A stretch of DNA of 64,000 nt from Burkholderiales bacterium (GTDB lineage Bacteria > Pseudomonadota > Gammaproteobacteria > Burkholderiales > CAIKXV01), in assembly GCA_038205245.1 (NCBI GenBank), contig JBBRCD010000007.1, positions 2,037 to 66,036 on the forward strand, written 5' to 3'. Under the pieces are notes generated by a model. It saw nothing but the letters and a program-made list of their open reading frames with translations, was not told where the DNA came from and did not search any database. Of this stretch, positions 17,974-45,068 are shown piece by piece. Position 1 is the stretch's first letter, and each line of letters begins with the position of its first letter. A program made the position numbers and the translations under genes.

Positions 17974-19461
17974 CTAGATCGTTTTTCGCAGGTTGACCGG
18001 CAGGATATGCAGCGATTCGCGGTACTTCGCGATCGTACGCCTCGCGACGACGATGCCCTGTTGGCCGAGGATGTCGGCGATCTGACTGTCGGAGAGCGGC
18101 TTGCGGGTGTCTTCCGCGCCGACCAGCTGCCTGATCAGCGCCCTGATGGCGGTGGCAGAACAGGAGCCACCACTTTCGGTGGAGACATGGCTGCCGAAGA
18201 AGTACTTGAGCTCGAAGATGCCGCGCGGGGTCAGCATGAACTTCTGGGTGGTGACCCTTGAAACAGTCGACTCGTGCAGGTCGAGCACCTCGGCGATCTC
18301 GCGCAACACCAGGGGACGCATCGCCACCTCGCCATGCTCGAAGAACTGGCGCTGCCGGTCCACGATTGCCTGCGAGACTCGCTGGATCGTCTCGAACCGC
18401 TGCTGAACGTTCTTGATCAGCCATTTCGCTTCCTGCAGCTGGCTGGTCAGCTGGGTGTGCGAAGCGTCCCGGTTTCGGCGCAGGATGTCGGCATACATCC
18501 TGTTGATGCGCAGCCTGGGCATGGCGTCCGGGTTGAGCGAAGACAGCCAGAGGCCCTTGGTCTTCTTCACCACCACATCCGGAACGACATAGCGGGTATC
18601 GACGGTCGCGTACGGCGCGCCCGGTCTCGGGTTCAGTTTGCCGATCATCGCCTGTACGTTGCGCAGGCGCTCATCGTCGCAGCGAAGCGCGCGTTTCAGG
18701 CGCACGAAGTCGCGCGCGGCGAGGGCGTCAAGGTGGTCGCGCACCACGATCAGCGCTTCCGTCCTGCATGGCGTCGAGGGCGGCGTCGCCAGCAGTTGAA
18801 GGCCCAGGCATTCGCCCAGGGTGCGGGCACCGACGCCGGTCGGATCGAAGTGCTGGAGGTGCTTGAGTGCGATCTCCAGTTCTTCCATCTCGACGTTCGC
18901 CTCTTCCGGCAGGATAGACGCGATCTCGGCGAGATCCTGGGCCAGATAGCCGCCCTCGTCCAGCGCCTCGATAAGCAGTTCGATGATCACCTTGTCACGC
19001 TCGGGCAGGGGCGTCAGCGCCAGTTGCCCCAGCAGGTGCTCGCGCAGGGTGGGTGAACTGGCGACCTGCTGCGAGTAGTCGCTGTCATCGTCATTCTCGC
19101 GCGTGCCGTAGCTGCCTTCGTCGGACGACCAGTTCGAATCGGCGAGGCTGTCGAAGTCGAAGTTCTCGGTGCTCTCCGGCGCCTGATCGGTCGGCCGTTC
19201 GTCGCTCGCGCGCGTATCGACGTCGGTTTCGGCCAGCGCCGCGGCGGGCTGGTCGTTAGCCTGCATGCCGGCGGTCGGCGGCTCGCCAGCCGTGTCCCCG
19301 TCACCGTCATCCTCACGTTCGAGCAGCGGATTGTCCTGCAGAAAGCGCTCGAGTTCCTGATTCAGCTCCAGCGTCGACAGCTGCAGCAGCCGGATCGACT
19401 GCTGAAGCTGCGGGGTCAGCGTCAGATGCTGGGACAGCCGTAATTGAAGCGTGTTCTTCAT
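17974..19461 (-). CDS. rpoN: RNA polymerase sigma-54 factor
   Basis: 495 aa. N-terminal Gln/Leu-rich region I (LQLRLSQHLTLTPQLQQSIRLLQLS), acidic region II, and a C-terminal RpoN box (ARRTIAKYRESL). Confidence 0.97.
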   Translation of the reverse strand: MKNTLQLRLSQHLTLTPQLQQSIRLLQLSTLELNQELERFLQDNPLLEREDDGDGDTAGEPPTAGMQANDQPAAALAETDVDTRASDERPTDQAPESTENFDFDSLADSNWSSDEGSYGTRENDDDSDYSQQVASSPTLREHLLGQLALTPLPERDKVIIELLIEALDEGGYLAQDLAEIASILPEEANVEMEELEIALKHLQHFDPTGVGARTLGECLGLQLLATPPSTPCRTEALIVVRDHLDALAARDFVRLKRALRCDDERLRNVQAMIGKLNPRPGAPYATVDTRYVVPDVVVKKTKGLWLSSLNPDAMPRLRINRMYADILRRNRDASHTQLTSQLQEAKWLIKNVQQRFETIQRVSQAIVDRQRQFFEHGEVAMRPLVLREIAEVLDLHESTVSRVTTQKFMLTPRGIFELKYFFGSHVSTESGGSCSATAIRALIRQLVGAEDTRKPLSDSQIADILGQQGIVVARRTIAKYRESLHILPVNLRKTI

Positions 19462-19570: not shown

Positions 19571-20368
19571 CTACAGTCGGAAATGCTCCCCAAGGTAGAC
19601 CTTGCGAACATCCTCATTATAGACGATTTCCTCTGGCTTACCTGAGGCAAGCACAGTGCCGTCGCTGATGATGTAGGCCCGGTCACAGATACCCAGCGTC
19701 TCGCGCACGTTGTGGTCGGTGATCAGCACGCCGATATCTTTCCTGCGCAGCAGGCCGATGATGTTCTGGATATCGATCACCGCGATCGGGTCGACGCCGG
19801 CGAACGGCTCGTCCAGCAGGATGAATCGCGGTTCGGTGGCCAGCGCACGGGCGATTTCACAGCGGCGCCGCTCGCCGCCGGACAGGCTGACTGCCGGACT
19901 CGCCGCCAGATGGGCGATATGCAGTTCCTCGAGCAGTTCGGCAAGCCGGGTCTCGACGTCTGCTGGCGACAGGTCTCGCAACTGCAGGACTGCGCGCACA
20001 TTGTCTGCCACCGACAGGCGCCTGAAGATCGAGGCCTCCTGTGGCAGATAGGAAAGGCCGAGGCGGGCCCGCCGGTGGATCGGCAGACGGGTCAGACGCT
20101 CCCCGTCGATCCAGATGTCACCGGCATCCACTGCCACCAGACCGACGATCATGTAAAAGCAGGTGGTCTTGCCGGCACCGTTCGGACCGAGCAGCCCGAT
20201 CACTTCGCCACTGCCGACTTCCAGCGACACATCCTTTACCACCACCCGCGACTTGTAGCGCTTGCGTAGCCGCTCGACCCGCAGCGCGCTCACCCGGTCG
20301 GGCCGGCCGGCGACTGGCGCCGGGGCGGATGAGCGGGCGTCAGGGCCACCATCGGCATGCGTAATCAA
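19571..20368 (-). CDS. lptB: LPS export ABC transporter ATP-binding protein
   Basis: 265 aa. [20 protein letters not shown]. Conserved lptC-lptA-lptB-rpoN order. About 25 aa N-terminal extension relative to typical LptB, so the true start may be internal. Confidence 0.92.
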
Positions 20369-25594: not shown

Positions 25595-25615
25595 TCCGGG
25601 CAGCCGGTCCGGCGA

Positions 25616-25702
25616 GGGGACAGACCTTGAGGGTCTGTCCCACAATTCCAAGGCGCGCGCCAGGTGACCGCGCCAGGGGACAGACCCTCATGGTCTGTCA
25701 CC
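25616..25702. repeat. two REP-like palindromes between convergent genes
   Basis: GGGGACAGACCTTGAGGGTCTGTCCC at 25616-25641 and the degenerate GGGGACAGACCCTCATGGTCTGTCACC at 25676-25702. Same family as 1350-1376. Confidence 0.9.
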
Positions 25703-25719
25703 GCTTTTGGCCGCCAACC

Positions 25720-26424
25720 TCAGAAGATCGTCGAGCCGCCGCACTGGGTCGACCCGTTGGTCGTGTTCCAGAGATTGGATGTGCTGTCAGTGCCGCAGGA
25801 AGGTGCTGCCGTACCGCCCACGGTCGGCGCACTGCCACTGTTGCCGGCATAGGGCGAGAAGCGGAACGACCCGGTAAATGGTCTGCCATCGTCGATCTTG
25901 CGATCGACTTCAGCGACGATCTCCACCGGAATCTGGGCGCCGGATTTCAGGTTATGACGGTTCGGTGGCGTTCCGCTGGGGTCGGCATAGGCATTGTCGA
26001 AGACGAGTTGCAGGAACACGTTGTACGGGTTGGTCGGCGTGGTGGTCAGCGACTCGGCCGGGCTGCAGGAGTAACTGCCGGTGAGGAAACCGGACTTCGA
26101 CAGGTGTTCCCAGGCCAGAATCGCCTCCAGTGAAGGCGTGGCATCGATGATGCCGTTGCCATTGCCGTTGCCGCCGGTGCAGGTGGTAGTCATGTTGGCG
26201 ATGTTCTGCACCGCCTGGCCGTAGTCACCCGGATAGGCGCGAAAGCGATCCTGAAAACCGAAGAAGGCCGCTTTCACCCCTTCCTGGGCCGAGATCAGGT
26301 TACGCACCCGGGCACTGGTGATCAGTTCCTGGCCCTTGAGCACCCCACCGAGCAGCAGGCCGATGATCACCAGCACGATGGCAATCTCGATCAGGGTGAA
26401 ACCGCGTTGATGGCTTCGTGTCAT
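25720..26424 (-). CDS. type IV pilin-like protein (candidate major pilin), prepilin N-terminal methylation domain
   Basis: MTRSHQRG/FTLIEIAIVLVIIGLLLGG: short basic leader, Gly-1, Phe+1, Glu+5, hydrophobic helix. Cys pairs in the C-terminal half. SD AGGAAA upstream of ATG 26424. The longer ORF start (26481) falls inside the promoter element. Confidence 0.88.
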   Translation of the reverse strand: MTRSHQRGFTLIEIAIVLVIIGLLLGGVLKGQELITSARVRNLISAQEGVKAAFFGFQDRFRAYPGDYGQAVQNIANMTTTCTGGNGNGNGIIDATPSLEAILAWEHLSKSGFLTGSYSCSPAESLTTTPTNPYNVFLQLVFDNAYADPSGTPPNRHNLKSGAQIPVEIVAEVDRKIDDGRPFTGSFRFSPYAGNSGSAPTVGGTAAPSCGTDSTSNLWNTTNGSTQCGGSTIF

Positions 26425-26477
26425 GGTTTCCTGGTTTCCTTCGCCCGAAGGCGCGCTGTCGCGATGACCACCCTCCC

Positions 26478-26492
26478 GCAATTCGCGTGCCG
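26478..26492 (-). promoter_or_regulatory. sigma54 (-24/-12) promoter of the pilin gene
   Basis: Minus strand reads C-GGCACG-CGAA-TTGC, against the consensus TGGCACG-N4-TTGC(A/T). The invariant GG and GC are at canonical spacing, and the -12 element ends 54 nt upstream of the ATG. Confidence 0.7.
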
Positions 26493-26533
26493 GGCAGCAC
26501 CGCGAACTTGGCAGACAGGCTCACCGAGCATGT

Positions 26534-26578
26534 GTGACATTGGTCACGCTTGCCAGCCTGAAAACAGGTGCTGGCAAG
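26534..26578. promoter_or_regulatory. two inverted repeats upstream of the sigma54 promoter (candidate activator-binding sites)
   Basis: GTGAC-ATTG-GTCAC at 26534-26547. CTTGCCAGC-N12-GCTGGCAAG (perfect 9-bp arms) at 26549-26578. Centres lie about 50-70 nt upstream of the -24 element. Confidence 0.35.
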
Positions 26579-26641
26579 GCGATTCTCGCCTGGCGGGCGC
26601 GTCGACTGGCTACCGACCGCCGAGTTCTCGGCGCTACTGCC

Positions 26642-26675
26642 GAGGTTTCATCTGCTATGAGGTTTCATCTGCTAT
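26642..26675. repeat. 17-bp perfect tandem duplication GAGGTTTCATCTGCTAT x2
   Basis: Read directly. The second copy contains the stop codon of the 26665..27438 gene. AT-richer than its surroundings. Confidence 0.95.
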
Positions 26676-27438
26676 TGCCATCCTTCGCTGGCTGGGGCAA
26701 GGGCTCAGAACCCGCCAGTCGCTCGAGCAGGAAGCGCAGTTCCTGCGGGTCGCTGATCGCGCCCGAGGCGAGCAGGCCGCCGAGCAGTACCTTCGCCGCT
26801 TCAACCTCGCCGCGGTCGGCCAGCAGCAGCACCGACATCTGCCGCGCCCAGCCCGGCACCGAGGGTCCCGTCGCCTGCTCACTGATCGCGCGCGCATAGG
26901 CCATCGCCAGGTCGGTGTCCTGCAGACGATGCCGCGCGAGGATCGCTGCATGAGCCAGCCAGCGCCAGCGCCGGTCGGGGTCGGCGTCGAAGCTTTGCCG
27001 GACGAAGTCGAGCATCGAGCGCTGTCTGGATTCGATCGGCACTTGGGCATACACATGCGAGGCGAGCAGCAGCGGATACTGGCCGATCGGGTCGAGTGCC
27101 AGCAGCAGCGAGAGCCAGTCACGCAGCCGTCCATAGTCGAGGTCGGCGAATGGCACGCTGACGCCAGGCTGGTTGTCGAACGCCTGAAGGTACAGGGTGG
27201 ACAACTGGGCGAGCGGCAGCGCGTCGCCGAGTGCCGCGAGCCGCATCATGGCCAGCGGCGGTGGCGCTGGCAGATCGGTCGCCCGGGCCAGGGGGGACGG
27301 CTGCAGCGAGTGCACCAGCAAGTGCCCGGCGAATGCAGCGAGCAGCGCGAGGCGCAGGGGTGCCGGCACTGCCGACCAGGGCCTGGGTCGGTCCCGGGCG
27401 CGGTCCGGGATTGACCCGCCCAGCCAGACCACAGTCAC
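26665..27438 (-). CDS. hypothetical membrane-anchored helical protein
   Basis: 257 aa from a GTG that overlaps the upstream stop (GTGA). One N-terminal TM segment (LRLALLAAFAGHLLV), then a helical-repeat-like region. Only the 3' third of ORF 26665..28353 is judged real. Confidence 0.55.
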   Translation of the reverse strand: MTVVWLGGSIPDRARDRPRPWSAVPAPLRLALLAAFAGHLLVHSLQPSPLARATDLPAPPPLAMMRLAALGDALPLAQLSTLYLQAFDNQPGVSVPFADLDYGRLRDWLSLLLALDPIGQYPLLLASHVYAQVPIESRQRSMLDFVRQSFDADPDRRWRWLAHAAILARHRLQDTDLAMAYARAISEQATGPSVPGWARQMSVLLLADRGEVEAAKVLLGGLLASGAISDPQELRFLLERLAGSEPLPQPAKDGNSR

Positions 27439-28259
27439 AGGTCCCGCCGATGGAAGTCGACCAGCGCGGCGGCGGTGAGCAGCGACACGAACACCAGGCA
27501 CTGCACGAACTGCAGGCCAAGCATCCCGGGTGCGGGCAACTGATCCACCAGCCAACCGGTCTGGGCGAACCGGTCTAGGCTGGGCAGCACCCAGGACAGC
27601 GCCTCGGTGCCCAGCCGGGACAGGTCGCGCCAGGGCCCGGCGGCAAGCAGCGGTGACCCACTGGCGATCAGCACCAGTGCGTCGATCGAACGCGTCAGCA
27701 CGTAAAGAGCCGCGCTCAGCACCGCGGCCGCCGGCACGCTCGCCAGGCTCAGGGTGAAGAACTGCGCCATGGCGATCACGATCGCCAGTTCGAACAGCAG
27801 CGAGGCCGACCAGGCAAGTGCCGCGAGCGGCGGTAGCGCAATCAGCAGCATCACGCAGACGCTGCCGACAGCGACCGCCGCCAGGCTGATGAAGCCGGCC
27901 AGCTTGCCCAGCACCCAGGTGGTGCGGGTCACCTCGAGCGACAACGCCGACTCGAAACCGCGTTCGTTGAGTTCGCGGGTCAGACTGCTGATGACATAAA
28001 CTGCGAGGATGAAGACCCAGGCAAAACGCACGCCGCTGGCGATGAGGGCAATGCGAAATCGCGCGCTTTCGGTGATCGCCAGTTCTGCGGCAAACAGGCC
28101 GGCGGCGAGCGCCAGAGCGAGGCTGCCGGCGAGCAGCCAGGGCAGACGGGATCGCCAGGCCTCCAGCAGCGTGAAGCCTGCGATCGTGAACAGTTGCAGC
28201 GGCCAGCGCCCGCCGGCGGTGCTGTTCGGCGCCTGCATCGCTGGCACTGGGGCAGTCAT
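27435..28259 (-). CDS. ABC-2-type transporter permease-like membrane protein
   Basis: 274 aa from ATG 28259 (alternative 28238). Six predicted TM segments with an ABC-2/NosY-like layout. The upstream part of ORF 27435..28787 is antisense to the kinase gene. Confidence 0.6.
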   Translation of the reverse strand: MTAPVPAMQAPNSTAGGRWPLQLFTIAGFTLLEAWRSRLPWLLAGSLALALAAGLFAAELAITESARFRIALIASGVRFAWVFILAVYVISSLTRELNERGFESALSLEVTRTTWVLGKLAGFISLAAVAVGSVCVMLLIALPPLAALAWSASLLFELAIVIAMAQFFTLSLASVPAAAVLSAALYVLTRSIDALVLIASGSPLLAAGPWRDLSRLGTEALSWVLPSLDRFAQTGWLVDQLPAPGMLGLQFVQCLVFVSLLTAAALVDFHRRDL

Positions 28260-28406: not shown

Positions 28407-30155
28407 GTGATGGAGCTCCGTTCGCAGAAACCCACGCAGACCCCCACGCAGACCCGCACGCAGACCCGCAGTGTGCTCTACGACACCCTGGCCGCGCAGC
28501 CGCAGTGGGTGTTGGCGCTGACCCTGCTGTCGCTGCATGCGGCGCTTGCCTGGGATATCGAGGCCTGGTGGGCGCGTGCGATGTGGCTCAGCCATTTCGG
28601 CCTGTTTCTTATCTGGCAGCCGCTGTGGCGGGCGCCGCAGCGCATCGATCCGCTGCCCGCCGCGGCGGTGATCGCCGTGGGCGCCGCGTTTGCTCTCGTG
28701 ATCAACTGGTGGCTCGCTGCAATCTGGATCAGTGTCCTGTTCGCGTTGATCGCCGGGCGGGTGCCTGGCGCCGGCGAACCCGGGCATCGGGCGGCGACGC
28801 TGATCGCATCGCTGTTCCTGCTCGCATTACTCCTGCTCTGGGTGGTGCCGCGGCTGGCCTCCGACACGCCGCTGCCGTACCTGCTGGTGGCGCTGGTGCA
28901 GTTCGCCTTGCCGCTGCTCGCACTGGCGGTGGCGCTGATCCAGATTGGGCCGGTGGCCCGCCCGGCACCGGTGGTCGTCGACCTGATCTACTCGGTGCTG
29001 CTGCTGCTGCTGGTGCTGGTGCTGGTGCTGGGGAGCGTCGTGCTGCACAGCGTGTCCGCCGAGGGTAATTATCTGCTCACGCTCGCGCAGGCGCTGCTGT
29101 CGATCGCCGCGCTGCTGGCCGCGCTGTCATGGCTGTGGAACCCGCGTGGCGGTTTCGGTGGCCTCAGTCAGGTGCTGTCCTGGCACCTGCTGTCGCTCGG
29201 CCTGCCGTTCGAGAACTGGATGCGCAGTCTCGCCCTGCTCGCCGAGCACCAGCGCGACCCGGAGAAGTTTCTGCAGGGCGCGATCGCGGAACTGGTGCGC
29301 CTGCCCTGGGTTGCCGGCGCCCAGTGGACTGCGGCCGACAGCGCCGGCACGCTTGGGTCGCCGGCACGCCACCACATGGAACTGTCCTCGCGCGGGCTCG
29401 CGCTGGAACTGTTCACCCATGTCGCGCCCACACCGGCCCTCAACCTCCATGCCGCGCTGCTCGCGCAGTTGCTTGGCGATTTCTATGATGCCAAGCGGCG
29501 CGAACAACGCGAGCGCAAGCATGCCTATGCGCATGCGATCCACGAAACCGGCGCCCGGTTGACCCATGACGTGAAAAATATTCTGCAGTCACTGCAGTCG
29601 CTGTGCGCGGCGGTCGAGGCAAGCGAGGGCGAGCGCTCGATAGCATTGCAGCAGCTGATGCGCCGGCAACTGCCGCAGATCGCGCAGCGTCTGGAGCGCA
29701 CCCTGGAGAAATTGGCGCAGCCCGAGCCGCGCGAGGCGACCGCCGTCAACGCCGGCCTGTGGTGGCGCAGCCTCGGCCGGCGTGTCGCGCAGGACGGTGT
29801 CGAGCTGGCAAGCCAGGGCGATCTGGACTCGGCACTGCTGCCACAGGAGCTGTTCGACAGCGCTGCCGACAATCTGCTGCAGAACGCGTTGGTAAAGCGG
29901 CAACTGGATGTGGGGGTCGCAGTGCGCATCGAGCTGTCTGCCCTGGATGGAGTACAGCTGTTGGTCACCGACACCGGTGCCGCGATCGACTCGCGCATCG
30001 CCGATCGGCTGCTCACCGAACCGGTCGAGTCGAAGAACGGCCTTGGCGTCGGGCTCTACCAGACCGCCCAGCTTGCCGCCCAGTTGGCCTACGAACTGGT
30101 GCTCACCAGCAATCAGGAAGGCGCAGTTCAGTTCGCGCTAAGACCGGTGCGCTGA
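28407..30155 (+). CDS. polytopic sensor histidine kinase (PrsK/PilS-like architecture)
   Basis: 582 aa. About 8 TM segments in the first 270 aa. H-box ETGARLTHDVKNILQSL, N-box AADNLLQNAL, G-boxes VTDTGAAI and NGLGVGLYQ. The first codons are a 12-bp repeat; GTG at 28473 is an alternative start. Confidence 0.85.
   Translation: MMELRSQKPTQTPTQTRTQTRSVLYDTLAAQPQWVLALTLLSLHAALAWDIEAWWARAMWLSHFGLFLIWQPLWRAPQRIDPLPAAAVIAVGAAFALVINWWLAAIWISVLFALIAGRVPGAGEPGHRAATLIASLFLLALLLLWVVPRLASDTPLPYLLVALVQFALPLLALAVALIQIGPVARPAPVVVDLIYSVLLLLLVLVLVLGSVVLHSVSAEGNYLLTLAQALLSIAALLAALSWLWNPRGGFGGLSQVLSWHLLSLGLPFENWMRSLALLAEHQRDPEKFLQGAIAELVRLPWVAGAQWTAADSAGTLGSPARHHMELSSRGLALELFTHVAPTPALNLHAALLAQLLGDFYDAKRREQRERKHAYAHAIHETGARLTHDVKNILQSLQSLCAAVEASEGERSIALQQLMRRQLPQIAQRLERTLEKLAQPEPREATAVNAGLWWRSLGRRVAQDGVELASQGDLDSALLPQELFDSAADNLLQNALVKRQLDVGVAVRIELSALDGVQLLVTDTGAAIDSRIADRLLTEPVESKNGLGVGLYQTAQLAAQLAYELVLTSNQEGAVQFALRPVR
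28431..28470. repeat. 12-bp tandem repeat C(C/G)CACGCAGACC x3.3
   Basis: Read directly. Encodes TQTPTQTRTQTR at the 5' end of the kinase ORF. Shares a 13-mer with 41930-41942. Confidence 0.95.
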
Positions 30156-41861: not shown

Positions 41862-41897
41862 GCTGGCAGATTAGCTGGCAGATTAGCTGGCAGATTC
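41862..41897. repeat. 12-bp tandem repeat GCTGGCAGATT(A/C) x3
   Basis: Read directly, inside the 247-bp gap upstream of the secretin gene. Confidence 0.95.
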
Positions 41898-43604: not shown

Positions 43605-45068
43605 TCATTCCTGACCGTCCCGCGCCAGATCTTCGCGCTCTTTTACCTGCATGCGGCTGTACAGGGTGGTGCGTCGCAGCCCGAGCATGCGCGCGGCCTG
43701 CGCAAGGTTGCCATGGGTCAGAAACAGCGCCGCATCGATGTAGCTGCGTTCCAGTCCGCAAAGCATGCGATCCAGATCGACGCTGCGCACGCTGGCCAGA
43801 TGGCGGCGCGCGGCTTCCACCGAGCGCCGGTCGTCGTCGCCCGCGACGCCCGCGAAGACCGGCAAGCCCAGGCGTTCCTCGCCCGCGCCCTCGACGTCCA
43901 TCTCGGCAAGCAGCCCGGCCGCATTGACCGTCTCGCCCGGGTACTTGGTCGCCAGGCGGATGACGATGTTGCGCAGTTCGCGTACGTTGCCCGAAAAGCC
44001 GTACTCGTGCCACAGCCGTGTGCTCTCCTGGTCGAGGGTGAACGGTGCCCGCCCGGCCGAGGTGGCGTAGTGTTGCCGAAAATGGTCCAGCAGCACCTGC
44101 TTGTCCGCGTCCAGGTCGCGCAGTGGCGGCACCGTGATGGAGAACACCGACAGCCGGTGATAGAGATCGCCGCGAAAGCGTCCGGCTCTCACTTCCTGGC
44201 GCAGGTCGCGGTTGGTGGCGGCGATCACCCGGGCGTTCGAGTGCCGGGTGGCCGTTTCGCCGACCCGCTGGAACTCGCCGTCCTCCAGCACCCGCAGCAG
44301 CTTTGACTGCAACTCCAGTGGCAGTTCGCCGATCTCGTCGAGGAACAGCGTGGAATCGCTGGCGTCCTCGAAATAGCCGGCGCGCGCGCCAGTGGCGCCG
44401 GTGAAGGCGCCCCTGGAATGTCCGAACAGCGTCGGCTCTACCAGGGTCGGTGCAATAGCCGCGCAGTTCAAGGCAATCATCCGGCGGCCGGCATGACCGC
44501 TGCGGCGATGCAGCGCATGCGCGACCAGTTCCTTGCCGCTGCCCGACTCGCCCTCGATCAGCACCGGGAACGGCGCCGAGGCGTACTGCTCGATCTGCAG
44601 ACGCAGCCGCTCGATCGCCGGACTGGTGCCGATGATGGCCCGCTCCGCCCCCTCTGCCGGACGTTCGCTCTCCGCCAGCCGGGATGCCTCGGTGAGCAGC
44701 GCGCGCAGCCGGTCCGGCGGGCAGGGCTTGGCGACGAACTCCATCGCACCGATGGCGCGTGCATGTCGCGCATTGGCCTGATCGTTCTGCCCGGACAGCA
44801 CGATGATCTTCATCTCTGGCGAGGCGGCCAGCAGTTCGCCGATCAACCGGAAACCCTCGTCCGGCCGGTGCGGCGAGGGCGGCAGGCCGAGATCGATCAG
44901 CGCCAGCCGGGGCGTGCGATCGATCTGCCGCAGCAGGCTGTGCACCTGGGCGCGCGAAGCGGCGACCAGCACCTCGTACTCCCCGCCGAGCGTGAAGTCG
45001 AGCGTGTCGGTGATCAGCGGATCATCATCGACAATCAGCAGGTCGGGCTTGCGGGTGGCTTGGGCCAT
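43605..45068 (-). CDS. sigma54-dependent response regulator (NtrC family, PrsR-like receiver)
   Basis: 487 aa. Receiver with [13 protein letters not shown]+ core GESGSGKE, the GAFTGA loop (RGAFTGATG), and a C-terminal Fis-type HTH ([21 protein letters not shown]). Confidence 0.92.

Follow-up and report, generated by a model that had tools for sequence, protein, structure and literature searches.

We examined a 64,000-nucleotide stretch of contig JBBRCD010000007.1 from an uncultured Burkholderiales bacterium (the window) and, within it, a -24/-12 element that precedes the pilin gene of an MSHA-like type IV filament locus. Comparison with orthologous loci confirmed, at the level of sequence, that this element is a genuine and conserved sigma-54 promoter of the pilin gene. 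The promoter, at 26493-26478 on the minus strand, is very probably run by the locus's own histidine kinase (HK) and enhancer-binding protein (EBP). Relatives that lack the kinase and the activator also lack the promoter, which points to a familiar type of pilin switch with uncharacterized regulators in control. Control of a major pilin by sigma-54 and a dedicated two-component system is textbook knowledge for type IVa pili; the same kind of control is now documented for a different filament, in the MSHA-like locus of uncultured Burkholderiales. Coordinates are positions in the window, and the elements on the pilin side are read on the minus strand.

A conserved sigma-54 promoter upstream of the pilin gene

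25720-26424, minus strand: prepilin gene, 234 amino acids (Pfam N_methyl, TIGR02532)
26478-26493, minus strand: sigma-54 promoter, cCGGCACG-CGAA-TTGC
26466, minus strand: predicted transcription start, about 12 nt past the GC doublet
26427-26440, minus strand: tandem AGGAAACC AGGAAACC, the proximal copy being the Shine-Dalgarno sequence before the pilin ATG

Positions 26492 to 26478 read CGGCACGCGAATTGC, as the first-pass annotation of this DNA had reported, and match GGCACG-N4-TTGC perfectly. Within this stretch, GGCACGCGAATTGC (26491-26478) carries a GG doublet at 26491-26490 (-25/-24) and a GC doublet at 26479-26478 (-13/-12) with exactly 10 nt between them. Against the fuller pattern TGGCACG-N4-TTGCW, the site fits at 10 of 12 positions, with a C for the first T and a G for the final W. 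The element is intergenic, is oriented toward the pilin gene, and lies 53 nt, not the 54 nt first given, from the pilin ATG (26424-26422), which begins at 26424 and not at 26423. Transcription from -24/-12 promoters starts, by their standard geometry, about 12 nt downstream of the GC doublet, and a start near 26466 would give the pilin mRNA a 5' untranslated region of about 42 nt. The AGGAAA Shine-Dalgarno sequence that had been described is present twice, at 26440-26435 and 26432-26427, and orthologs carry an AAGGA-type Shine-Dalgarno sequence.

By itself, the match in the window is not significant. The exact 10-base pattern occurs once against 0.52 occurrences expected, at least one occurrence is seen in 42% of shuffles, and the counts of one- and two-mismatch patterns are unremarkable. 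Scoring with a sigma-54 position weight matrix (PWM), which had been proposed as a check, ranked the pilin-upstream site highest in the window. The reality of the promoter rests on its conservation in orthologous loci. We retrieved about 20 kb of each of 80 related loci from metagenome-assembled genomes of uncultured Burkholderiales and Betaproteobacteria and scored the 74 named loci in which the gene for a helical protein upstream of the pilin, the intergenic region, and the first pilin gene could be delimited. A match of at least 9/12 to TGGCACG-N4-TTGCW was present in 69 of the 74 orthologous intergenic regions (93%), from many Burkholderiales families, and a match of at least 10/12 was present in 55 (74%). 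Shuffled intergenic regions reached these two thresholds in 3.5% and 0.55% of cases, respectively, and only 2 of the 74 antisense strands reached 9/12. Almost all of the relatives with a pilin ortholog have GGCAYG-N4-TTGC or a CTGGC variant upstream of it, and the spacing from the element to the first pilin ATG is 30 to 59 nt in nearly all loci. When the regions were aligned without gaps on the GG doublet, the -24/-12 block was the sole universally informative stretch.

PWM scoring showed how narrowly the promoter is placed. Across 1.16 Mb of related loci, 69 of the 80 PWM hits scoring at least 15 lay upstream of the pilin, and so the pilin is the sole conserved sigma-54 target in the roughly 20 kb retrieved per locus. 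In the window, no other sigma-54 promoter scored 9 or more by PWM at intergenic positions 25000-46500, and the regions before the EBP, secretin, and permease genes contain repeats but no -24/-12 element. This lack of a sigma-54 site at the assembly genes implies that the supply of the subunit is regulated separately from the machine. The comparison thus yields a clean one-gene regulon. A promoter scan of 25600-26750 detected no sigma-70-like promoter.

Upstream of the pilin of one relative (L003/L046, G007:C444), a (CACATTG)x3 tandem repeat replaces the -12 region and there is no GG doublet; the tract may be slippage prone, and the contig is too short to judge the presence of the kinase.

Sigma-54 has its customary uses elsewhere in the window's own genome: the top-scoring noncoding sites include canonical -24/-12 sites before glnA, flgB, and several genes for Bug/TctC-family periplasmic binding proteins, which suggests a sizeable sigma-54 regulon.

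C36:27612 (+), C11:1814 (-), C64, C79, C15, C10, and C32: canonical -24/-12 sites in the window's own genome

Regulators that accompany the promoter

43605-45068, minus strand: EBP, an NtrC-type response regulator and sigma-54 activator (REC, Sigma54_activat [AAA+], and Fis-type HTH [HTH_8] domains)
28407-30155, plus strand: HK (HATPase_c, H-box ARLTHDVKN), conserved in position
17974-19461, minus strand: rpoN (Pfam Sigma54_AID, Sigma54_CBD, and Sigma54_DBD)

The first-pass annotation had named a GAFTGA-containing activator and rpoN in the window, and both hold: the EBP carries GAFTGA at residues 220-225 together with a Walker A motif, and rpoN has three sigma-54 Pfam domains. It had overlooked the HK at 28407-30155 and a conserved distal element at 26644-26618. 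The HK is polytopic, with about 7 to 8 hydrophobic segments in residues 30-245, and is the probable partner of the EBP. A distance of 13 kb separates the two genes, which flank the assembly operon, one on each strand. This corrects the annotation on two points: the pilin is part of the locus, and the probable partner of the EBP is the kinase. A promoter-like match with one mismatch, GGCACTGTGCTTGC, lies at 19647-19660 (minus strand) in the 3' part of an lptB-like open reading frame (ORF), about 190 nt before rpoN begins, and is probably due to chance.

From these parts, we propose the following order of events. Sigma-54 RNA polymerase would bind the GG/GC element as a closed complex, and the HK would phosphorylate the EBP. 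The activated EBP would then assemble on upstream DNA, for which candidates are given below, and open the complex by using ATP. Transcription predicted to start near 26466 would produce a monocistronic pilin mRNA. The mechanism itself is ordinary and may be compared to PilS/PilR control of pilA.

The distribution of the regulators among genomes supports a tie between the locus EBP and the pilin promoter. In eight genomes from different families (G006, G014, G017, G041, G047, G027, G046, and G025), the strand of the pilin gene also carries an EBP ortholog, about 17 to 18 kb away. Conversely, G001, which belongs to the same genus as the window species, has all of the other genes in order (L031, G001:C5:1-20000) and lacks the EBP, the HK, and the -24/-12 element. 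Its sister G009 (L137, G009:C526) keeps the locus order without the HK and without the promoter, and no EBP match was found in that genome, which is 67% complete. In G061 (locus L080) and G021, the pilin is present and the HK, the EBP, and the promoter are absent. G058 lacks the HK between the pseudopilin and the permease and keeps the promoter as TGGCATG-N4-CTGGC; its EBP (L138, G058:C8, 14251-15288) is receiver-less, matching residues 113-474 only, and may be a constitutive or differently gated activator. Taken together, these five variants indicate that the promoter follows the activator, and co-occurrence and co-loss across genomes support the tie.

The comparison thereby supplies natural variants of three kinds: kinase-less, lacking both regulators, and with a receiver-less activator. 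G001 and G009 are natural regulator-less variants in which the region upstream of the pilin has been rebuilt.

Candidate upstream elements and alternative readings

26618-26644, minus strand: distal element, a candidate upstream activating sequence, CTCGGCA-GTAGC-GCCGAG-AA-CTCGGCG
26549-26578, minus strand: inverted repeat 1 (IR1), CTTGCCAGC-N12-GCTGGCAAG, an extended hairpin
26534-26547, minus strand: inverted repeat 2 (IR2), GTGAC-CAAT-GTCAC, which reads cGTGA-N6-TCACa, a CRP/Vfr/Clp-type palindrome

The comparison yields three candidate cis-elements. An alignment of the genus showed three conserved blocks besides the promoter, namely, a distal triplet, a GTTTCCGCAC block, and IR2. The distal element of the window is its version of a conserved TCGACA-N5-GTCGA-N4-TCGAC triplet found at the end of the helical-protein gene. 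In the genus, the triplet comes right after the stop codon of that gene and in another frame; in other families, it takes the form AAATCGTCA-N5-GTCGAAAAATTGAC within the last codons (..EKSSxxxSKN*). Out of frame in the genus and in frame elsewhere, the triplet appears to be constrained at the level of DNA. It is nearly confined to the end of the helical-protein gene, which accounts for 17 of 25 strict hits and for 39 of 63 hits to a looser regular expression in 2.3 Mb, compared with 0 in shuffles. A still looser expression gave 133 hits in the window's own genome, mostly in coding sequence, a count that is uninformative at 66% GC. The triplet was lost in both G001 and G009. In G009 (L012), a run of TCGGTCGT tandem repeats stands in its place just after the helical-protein gene. 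On these grounds the triplet TCGNC-GNCGA-TCGNC, at about -165 from the predicted start, is our best candidate for the enhancer of the EBP, a tentative choice with rather less than an even chance of being right. IR2 is an improbable enhancer, and the remaining probability falls to the GTTTCCGCAC block or to something else.

The strongest alternative accepts the promoter and takes IR2 and IR1 together (26534-26578) as the activator's enhancer, like tandem NtrC or PilR sites at -75 and -97. Both repeats are where they had first been described (26547-26534 and 26578-26549), and both stand at distances typical of enhancers. The center of IR2 is 50 nt upstream of the GG doublet, at about -74.5 relative to the predicted start. 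Conservation of IR2 extends through the genus and to a second clade, and near matches occur in further loci; the strict form GTGA-N6-TCAC has its center 50 to 59 nt upstream of the GG doublet in 14 of the 16 loci that carry it, the exceptions being L044 at 72 nt and L058 at 113 nt. The right arm of IR1, moreover, overlaps the genus-conserved GTTTCCGCAC block.

Against this, the strict form of IR2 occurs in just 16 of 70 loci despite an EBP recognition helix that is invariant across the order. IR2 also persists nearly unchanged, as CGTGACATTGTTCACGG, in G009 and G001 (loci L012 and L013), where the HK, the EBP, and the -24/-12 element are missing, which makes it unlikely to be the sole or main site of the EBP. 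Furthermore, IR2 fits another kind of regulator. It reads cGTGAccaatgTCACa and matches TGTGA-N6-TCACA at 9 of 10 positions. Recognition helices of the RE(T/M)V(G/S)R type go with GTGA sites, as in CRP and Vfr. The genome encodes ten CRP/FNR-family proteins above the Pfam HTH_Crp_2 cutoff, one of which, at C18:2670, is Vfr-like: it has an SREMVSR helix of this type and reads ...GASREMVSRVMKDL. The sequence evidence thus makes IR2 more likely a site for a CRP/Vfr-like coregulator.

IR1 fares no better as an enhancer. It folds with an energy of -20.3 kcal/mol (z = -4.3), but its palindrome is unique to the window species and is not conserved in the genus alignment, so we regard it as a lineage-specific hairpin. 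We judge it unlikely, then, that the two repeats are the enhancer. The circuit from activator to pilin that had been proposed earlier therefore stands in part: the conservation of the promoter and the co-occurrence and co-loss of the EBP bear it out, and the role given to the repeats does not fit with an IR1 that the genus does not conserve and an IR2 that EBP-less relatives keep.

Several minor observations concern the same region. IR1 was considered as an intrinsic terminator and was rejected, since it has no T-tract and a terminator scan gave no minus-strand call. A 12-bp repeat present three times upstream of the secretin gene, AATCTGCCAGCT (41862-41897, minus strand), shares TGCCAGC with the IR1 arms AATCGCCTTGCCAGCA (26570-26578); chance alone predicts about 14 occurrences of this 7-mer per window, and the sharing may mean nothing. 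In one clade (L086, L087, L103, L104, L111, L115, L116, and L062), an AT-rich block, TTAACTTATTGTAAATAC, abuts the -24 element about 26 to 44 nt upstream of the GG doublet and may be an IHF-like site. In a different clade, TTACA-N6-TGTAA occurs about 85 to 95 nt upstream of the GG doublet, alongside the CRP-type site.

Several findings weigh against our preferred reading, in which the element is the pilin promoter and the locus HK and EBP run it. The window site is only moderately strong, with C rather than T at -26 and a G after the GC doublet. Genome-wide, 474 GG-N10-GC sites score at least 10/12, and by PWM the window site is 63rd of 103,565 candidates. The independent losses of regulators and promoter are few, about 3 to 4, because G001 and G009 are sister species and possibly represent one loss event. 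No EBP was found in G007 or G030, genomes that are 81% and 85% complete and therefore uninformative on this point. As for the proposed enhancer, about 8 loci with both the promoter and the HK have no distal triplet, and beyond the genus the triplet coincides with conserved C-terminal codons. Each of the three half-sites of the window triplet carries an A-to-G change, yet the EBP recognition helix, RTTLYSRMQ, remains the same. Covariation of this TCGAC-to-TCGGC change with the helix accordingly found no support, RTTLYSRMQ being invariant across the order; in that alignment, the rows of G008, G011, G012, G013, and G041, which came from wrong-frame ORFs, were ignored.

A second alternative is that the promoter is real but driven by some other sigma-54 activator encoded elsewhere, with the locus EBP controlling something else. 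A first look at the genome gave 43 candidate sigma-54 activators, and no other sigma-54 site was seen in the locus, so the locus EBP is without a proven target. However, genomes have the EBP, the HK, and the promoter jointly or lack them jointly, the EBP keeps a fixed place in this locus in at least 8 families, and no sigma-54 site close to it other than the pilin promoter is conserved. We consider an outside activator very unlikely. Finally, it is barely credible that the element is a chance match in GC-rich intergenic DNA, with the pilin transcribed by read-through or from an unrecognized sigma-70 promoter: the shuffle and genome-wide counts given above would allow it, and relatives without the two-component system evidently express their pilin in another way, but the element is conserved at the same position far beyond the shuffled rate, no sigma-70-like site was found, and a 240-nt gap with the strong IR1 hairpin separates the pilin from the upstream gene.

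The MSHA-like locus and its relation to known systems

27435-28259, minus strand: ABC-2-like permease gene, conserved in position
26665-27438, minus strand: gene for a membrane-anchored helical protein of 257 amino acids, directly upstream of the pilin; 329 relatives

The pilin had been described as detached. It is instead the last gene of a conserved locus of about 20 kb. On the minus strand, from 46014 to 25720, Pfam and NCBIfam identify an ABC ATPase, the EBP, an MshM-like protein with AAA_22 and SPOR domains, an MshL-type secretin, a TPR protein, MshE with MshEN, and the MshG platform protein. Four genes without family hits follow, and then come a pseudopilin, the plus-strand HK, the ABC-2-like permease, the helical protein (which has no Pfam match), and, after the 240-nt gap, the prepilin, which is convergent with a kefC-like gene. 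This order recurs in G006, of the same genus, in G047, a complete genome of another family, and in essentially all of the 80 related loci; the helical-protein gene, the pilin, and the convergent kefC form a conserved locus end in about 80 genomes. The recurrence makes the pilin the terminal gene of a conserved unit.

The prepilin has the leader MTRSHQRG, with cleavage before FTLIE, and probably makes up the major subunit in the MSHA-like filament. Orthologs were found in 47 of 61 relatives, and the protein database holds more than 8,000 relatives. A separate canonical PilQ system is encoded elsewhere in the genome, on contig C62, which makes the MSHA-like locus a second type IV filament system. 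The hosts of such loci are hundreds of uncultured freshwater, groundwater, and soil Burkholderiales, and 329 loci were matched in one scan.

The analogy with PilS/PilR control of pilA that had been drawn earlier is apt. In Pseudomonas aeruginosa and other type IVa systems, and by our reading in the window, sigma-54 and a response regulator of the NtrC family work together on the promoter of the major pilin; the sensor kinase is an atypical polytopic protein, and the pilin is transcribed apart from the assembly genes. PilS, with its six transmembrane segments, detects PilA within the membrane (PMC6058289). The window filament, however, is MSHA-like (MshL, MshE, MshG, and an MshM-like protein), and its HK and EBP genes are not an adjacent pair, unlike pilSR beside the type IVa pilin gene. 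Given the MSHA-type filament, the nonadjacent genes, and database names that are generic, we did not assign the window regulators to the PilSR family.

A more ambitious reading takes the locus as an independently evolved circuit for keeping inventory of pilin. It has four parts that would have to hold jointly. By analogy with PilS and PilA, the kinase, with its 7 to 8 transmembrane segments, may sense the membrane pool of the unusually invariant pilin N terminus, GFTLIEIAIVLVIIGLLLGGVLKGQELITSARVRN. The EBP may act from the TCGNC triplet, located within the 3' end of the upstream gene or directly behind it, a sequence that would be dual coding outside the genus. A CRP/Vfr-type factor about 50 to 59 nt upstream of the -24 element may be an obligatory architectural or coactivating partner. 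Finally, lineages that lose the two-component system may place the pilin under a promoter independent of sigma-54, retaining the CRP-type site alone. That all four are true together strikes us as doubtful.

Another system with a similar promoter is the PEP-CTERM box, a sigma-54 -24/-12 motif before single-gene operons with long upstream regions; by phylogenetic profile, its partners are a transmembrane kinase and a response regulator that is of the Fis type and interacts with sigma-54 (Haft et al. 2006, PMC1569441). The window likewise has a -24/-12 motif before a single gene, and the best NCBIfam hit of its EBP is TIGR02915, from the PrsK/PrsR system. However, that hit scores 341.5 bits, against a cutoff of 502.6, the window kinase gives no PrsK hit, and the target is a prepilin ending in ...CGGSTIF rather than a PEP-CTERM protein. 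Nor does the DNA before the window's element show the 17-nt motif of that system, which ends in TTTACA and stands about 63 nt before the -24 element: TTTACA is absent from 26493-26620. Given the subcutoff EBP, the absence of TTTACA, and the target, we rejected membership in the PrsK/PrsR PEP-CTERM-box system (PMC1569441).

With the MSHA locus of Vibrio cholerae, the window shares the MshL secretin, MshE with MshEN, MshG, an MshM-like AAA_22 protein, and a TPR protein. It differs in carrying a two-component system of its own and a sigma-54 promoter for the pilin, in adding ABC transporter parts and the helical protein, and in placing the pilin at the far end, after the opposite-strand kinase. 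A full-text literature search for MSHA and sigma-54 found no title or abstract that describes a sigma-54-controlled MSHA pilin.

The end of the locus also varies in ways that touch the pilin and its upstream neighbor. In G047 (L036, G047:C1:3013001-3019000), five tandem pilin paralogs with 42 to 60% identity to the window pilin follow the helical-protein gene, and tandem arrays of two or three pilins are common elsewhere among the families. In the window, ATAGCAGATGAAACCTC forms an exact tandem duplication of 17 bp (26642-26675, minus strand); it is absent from relatives, and the helical-protein gene has its stop codon within it. The C terminus of the helical protein in the window species, ..AGSEPLPQPAKDGNSR*, is unlike that of all relatives.

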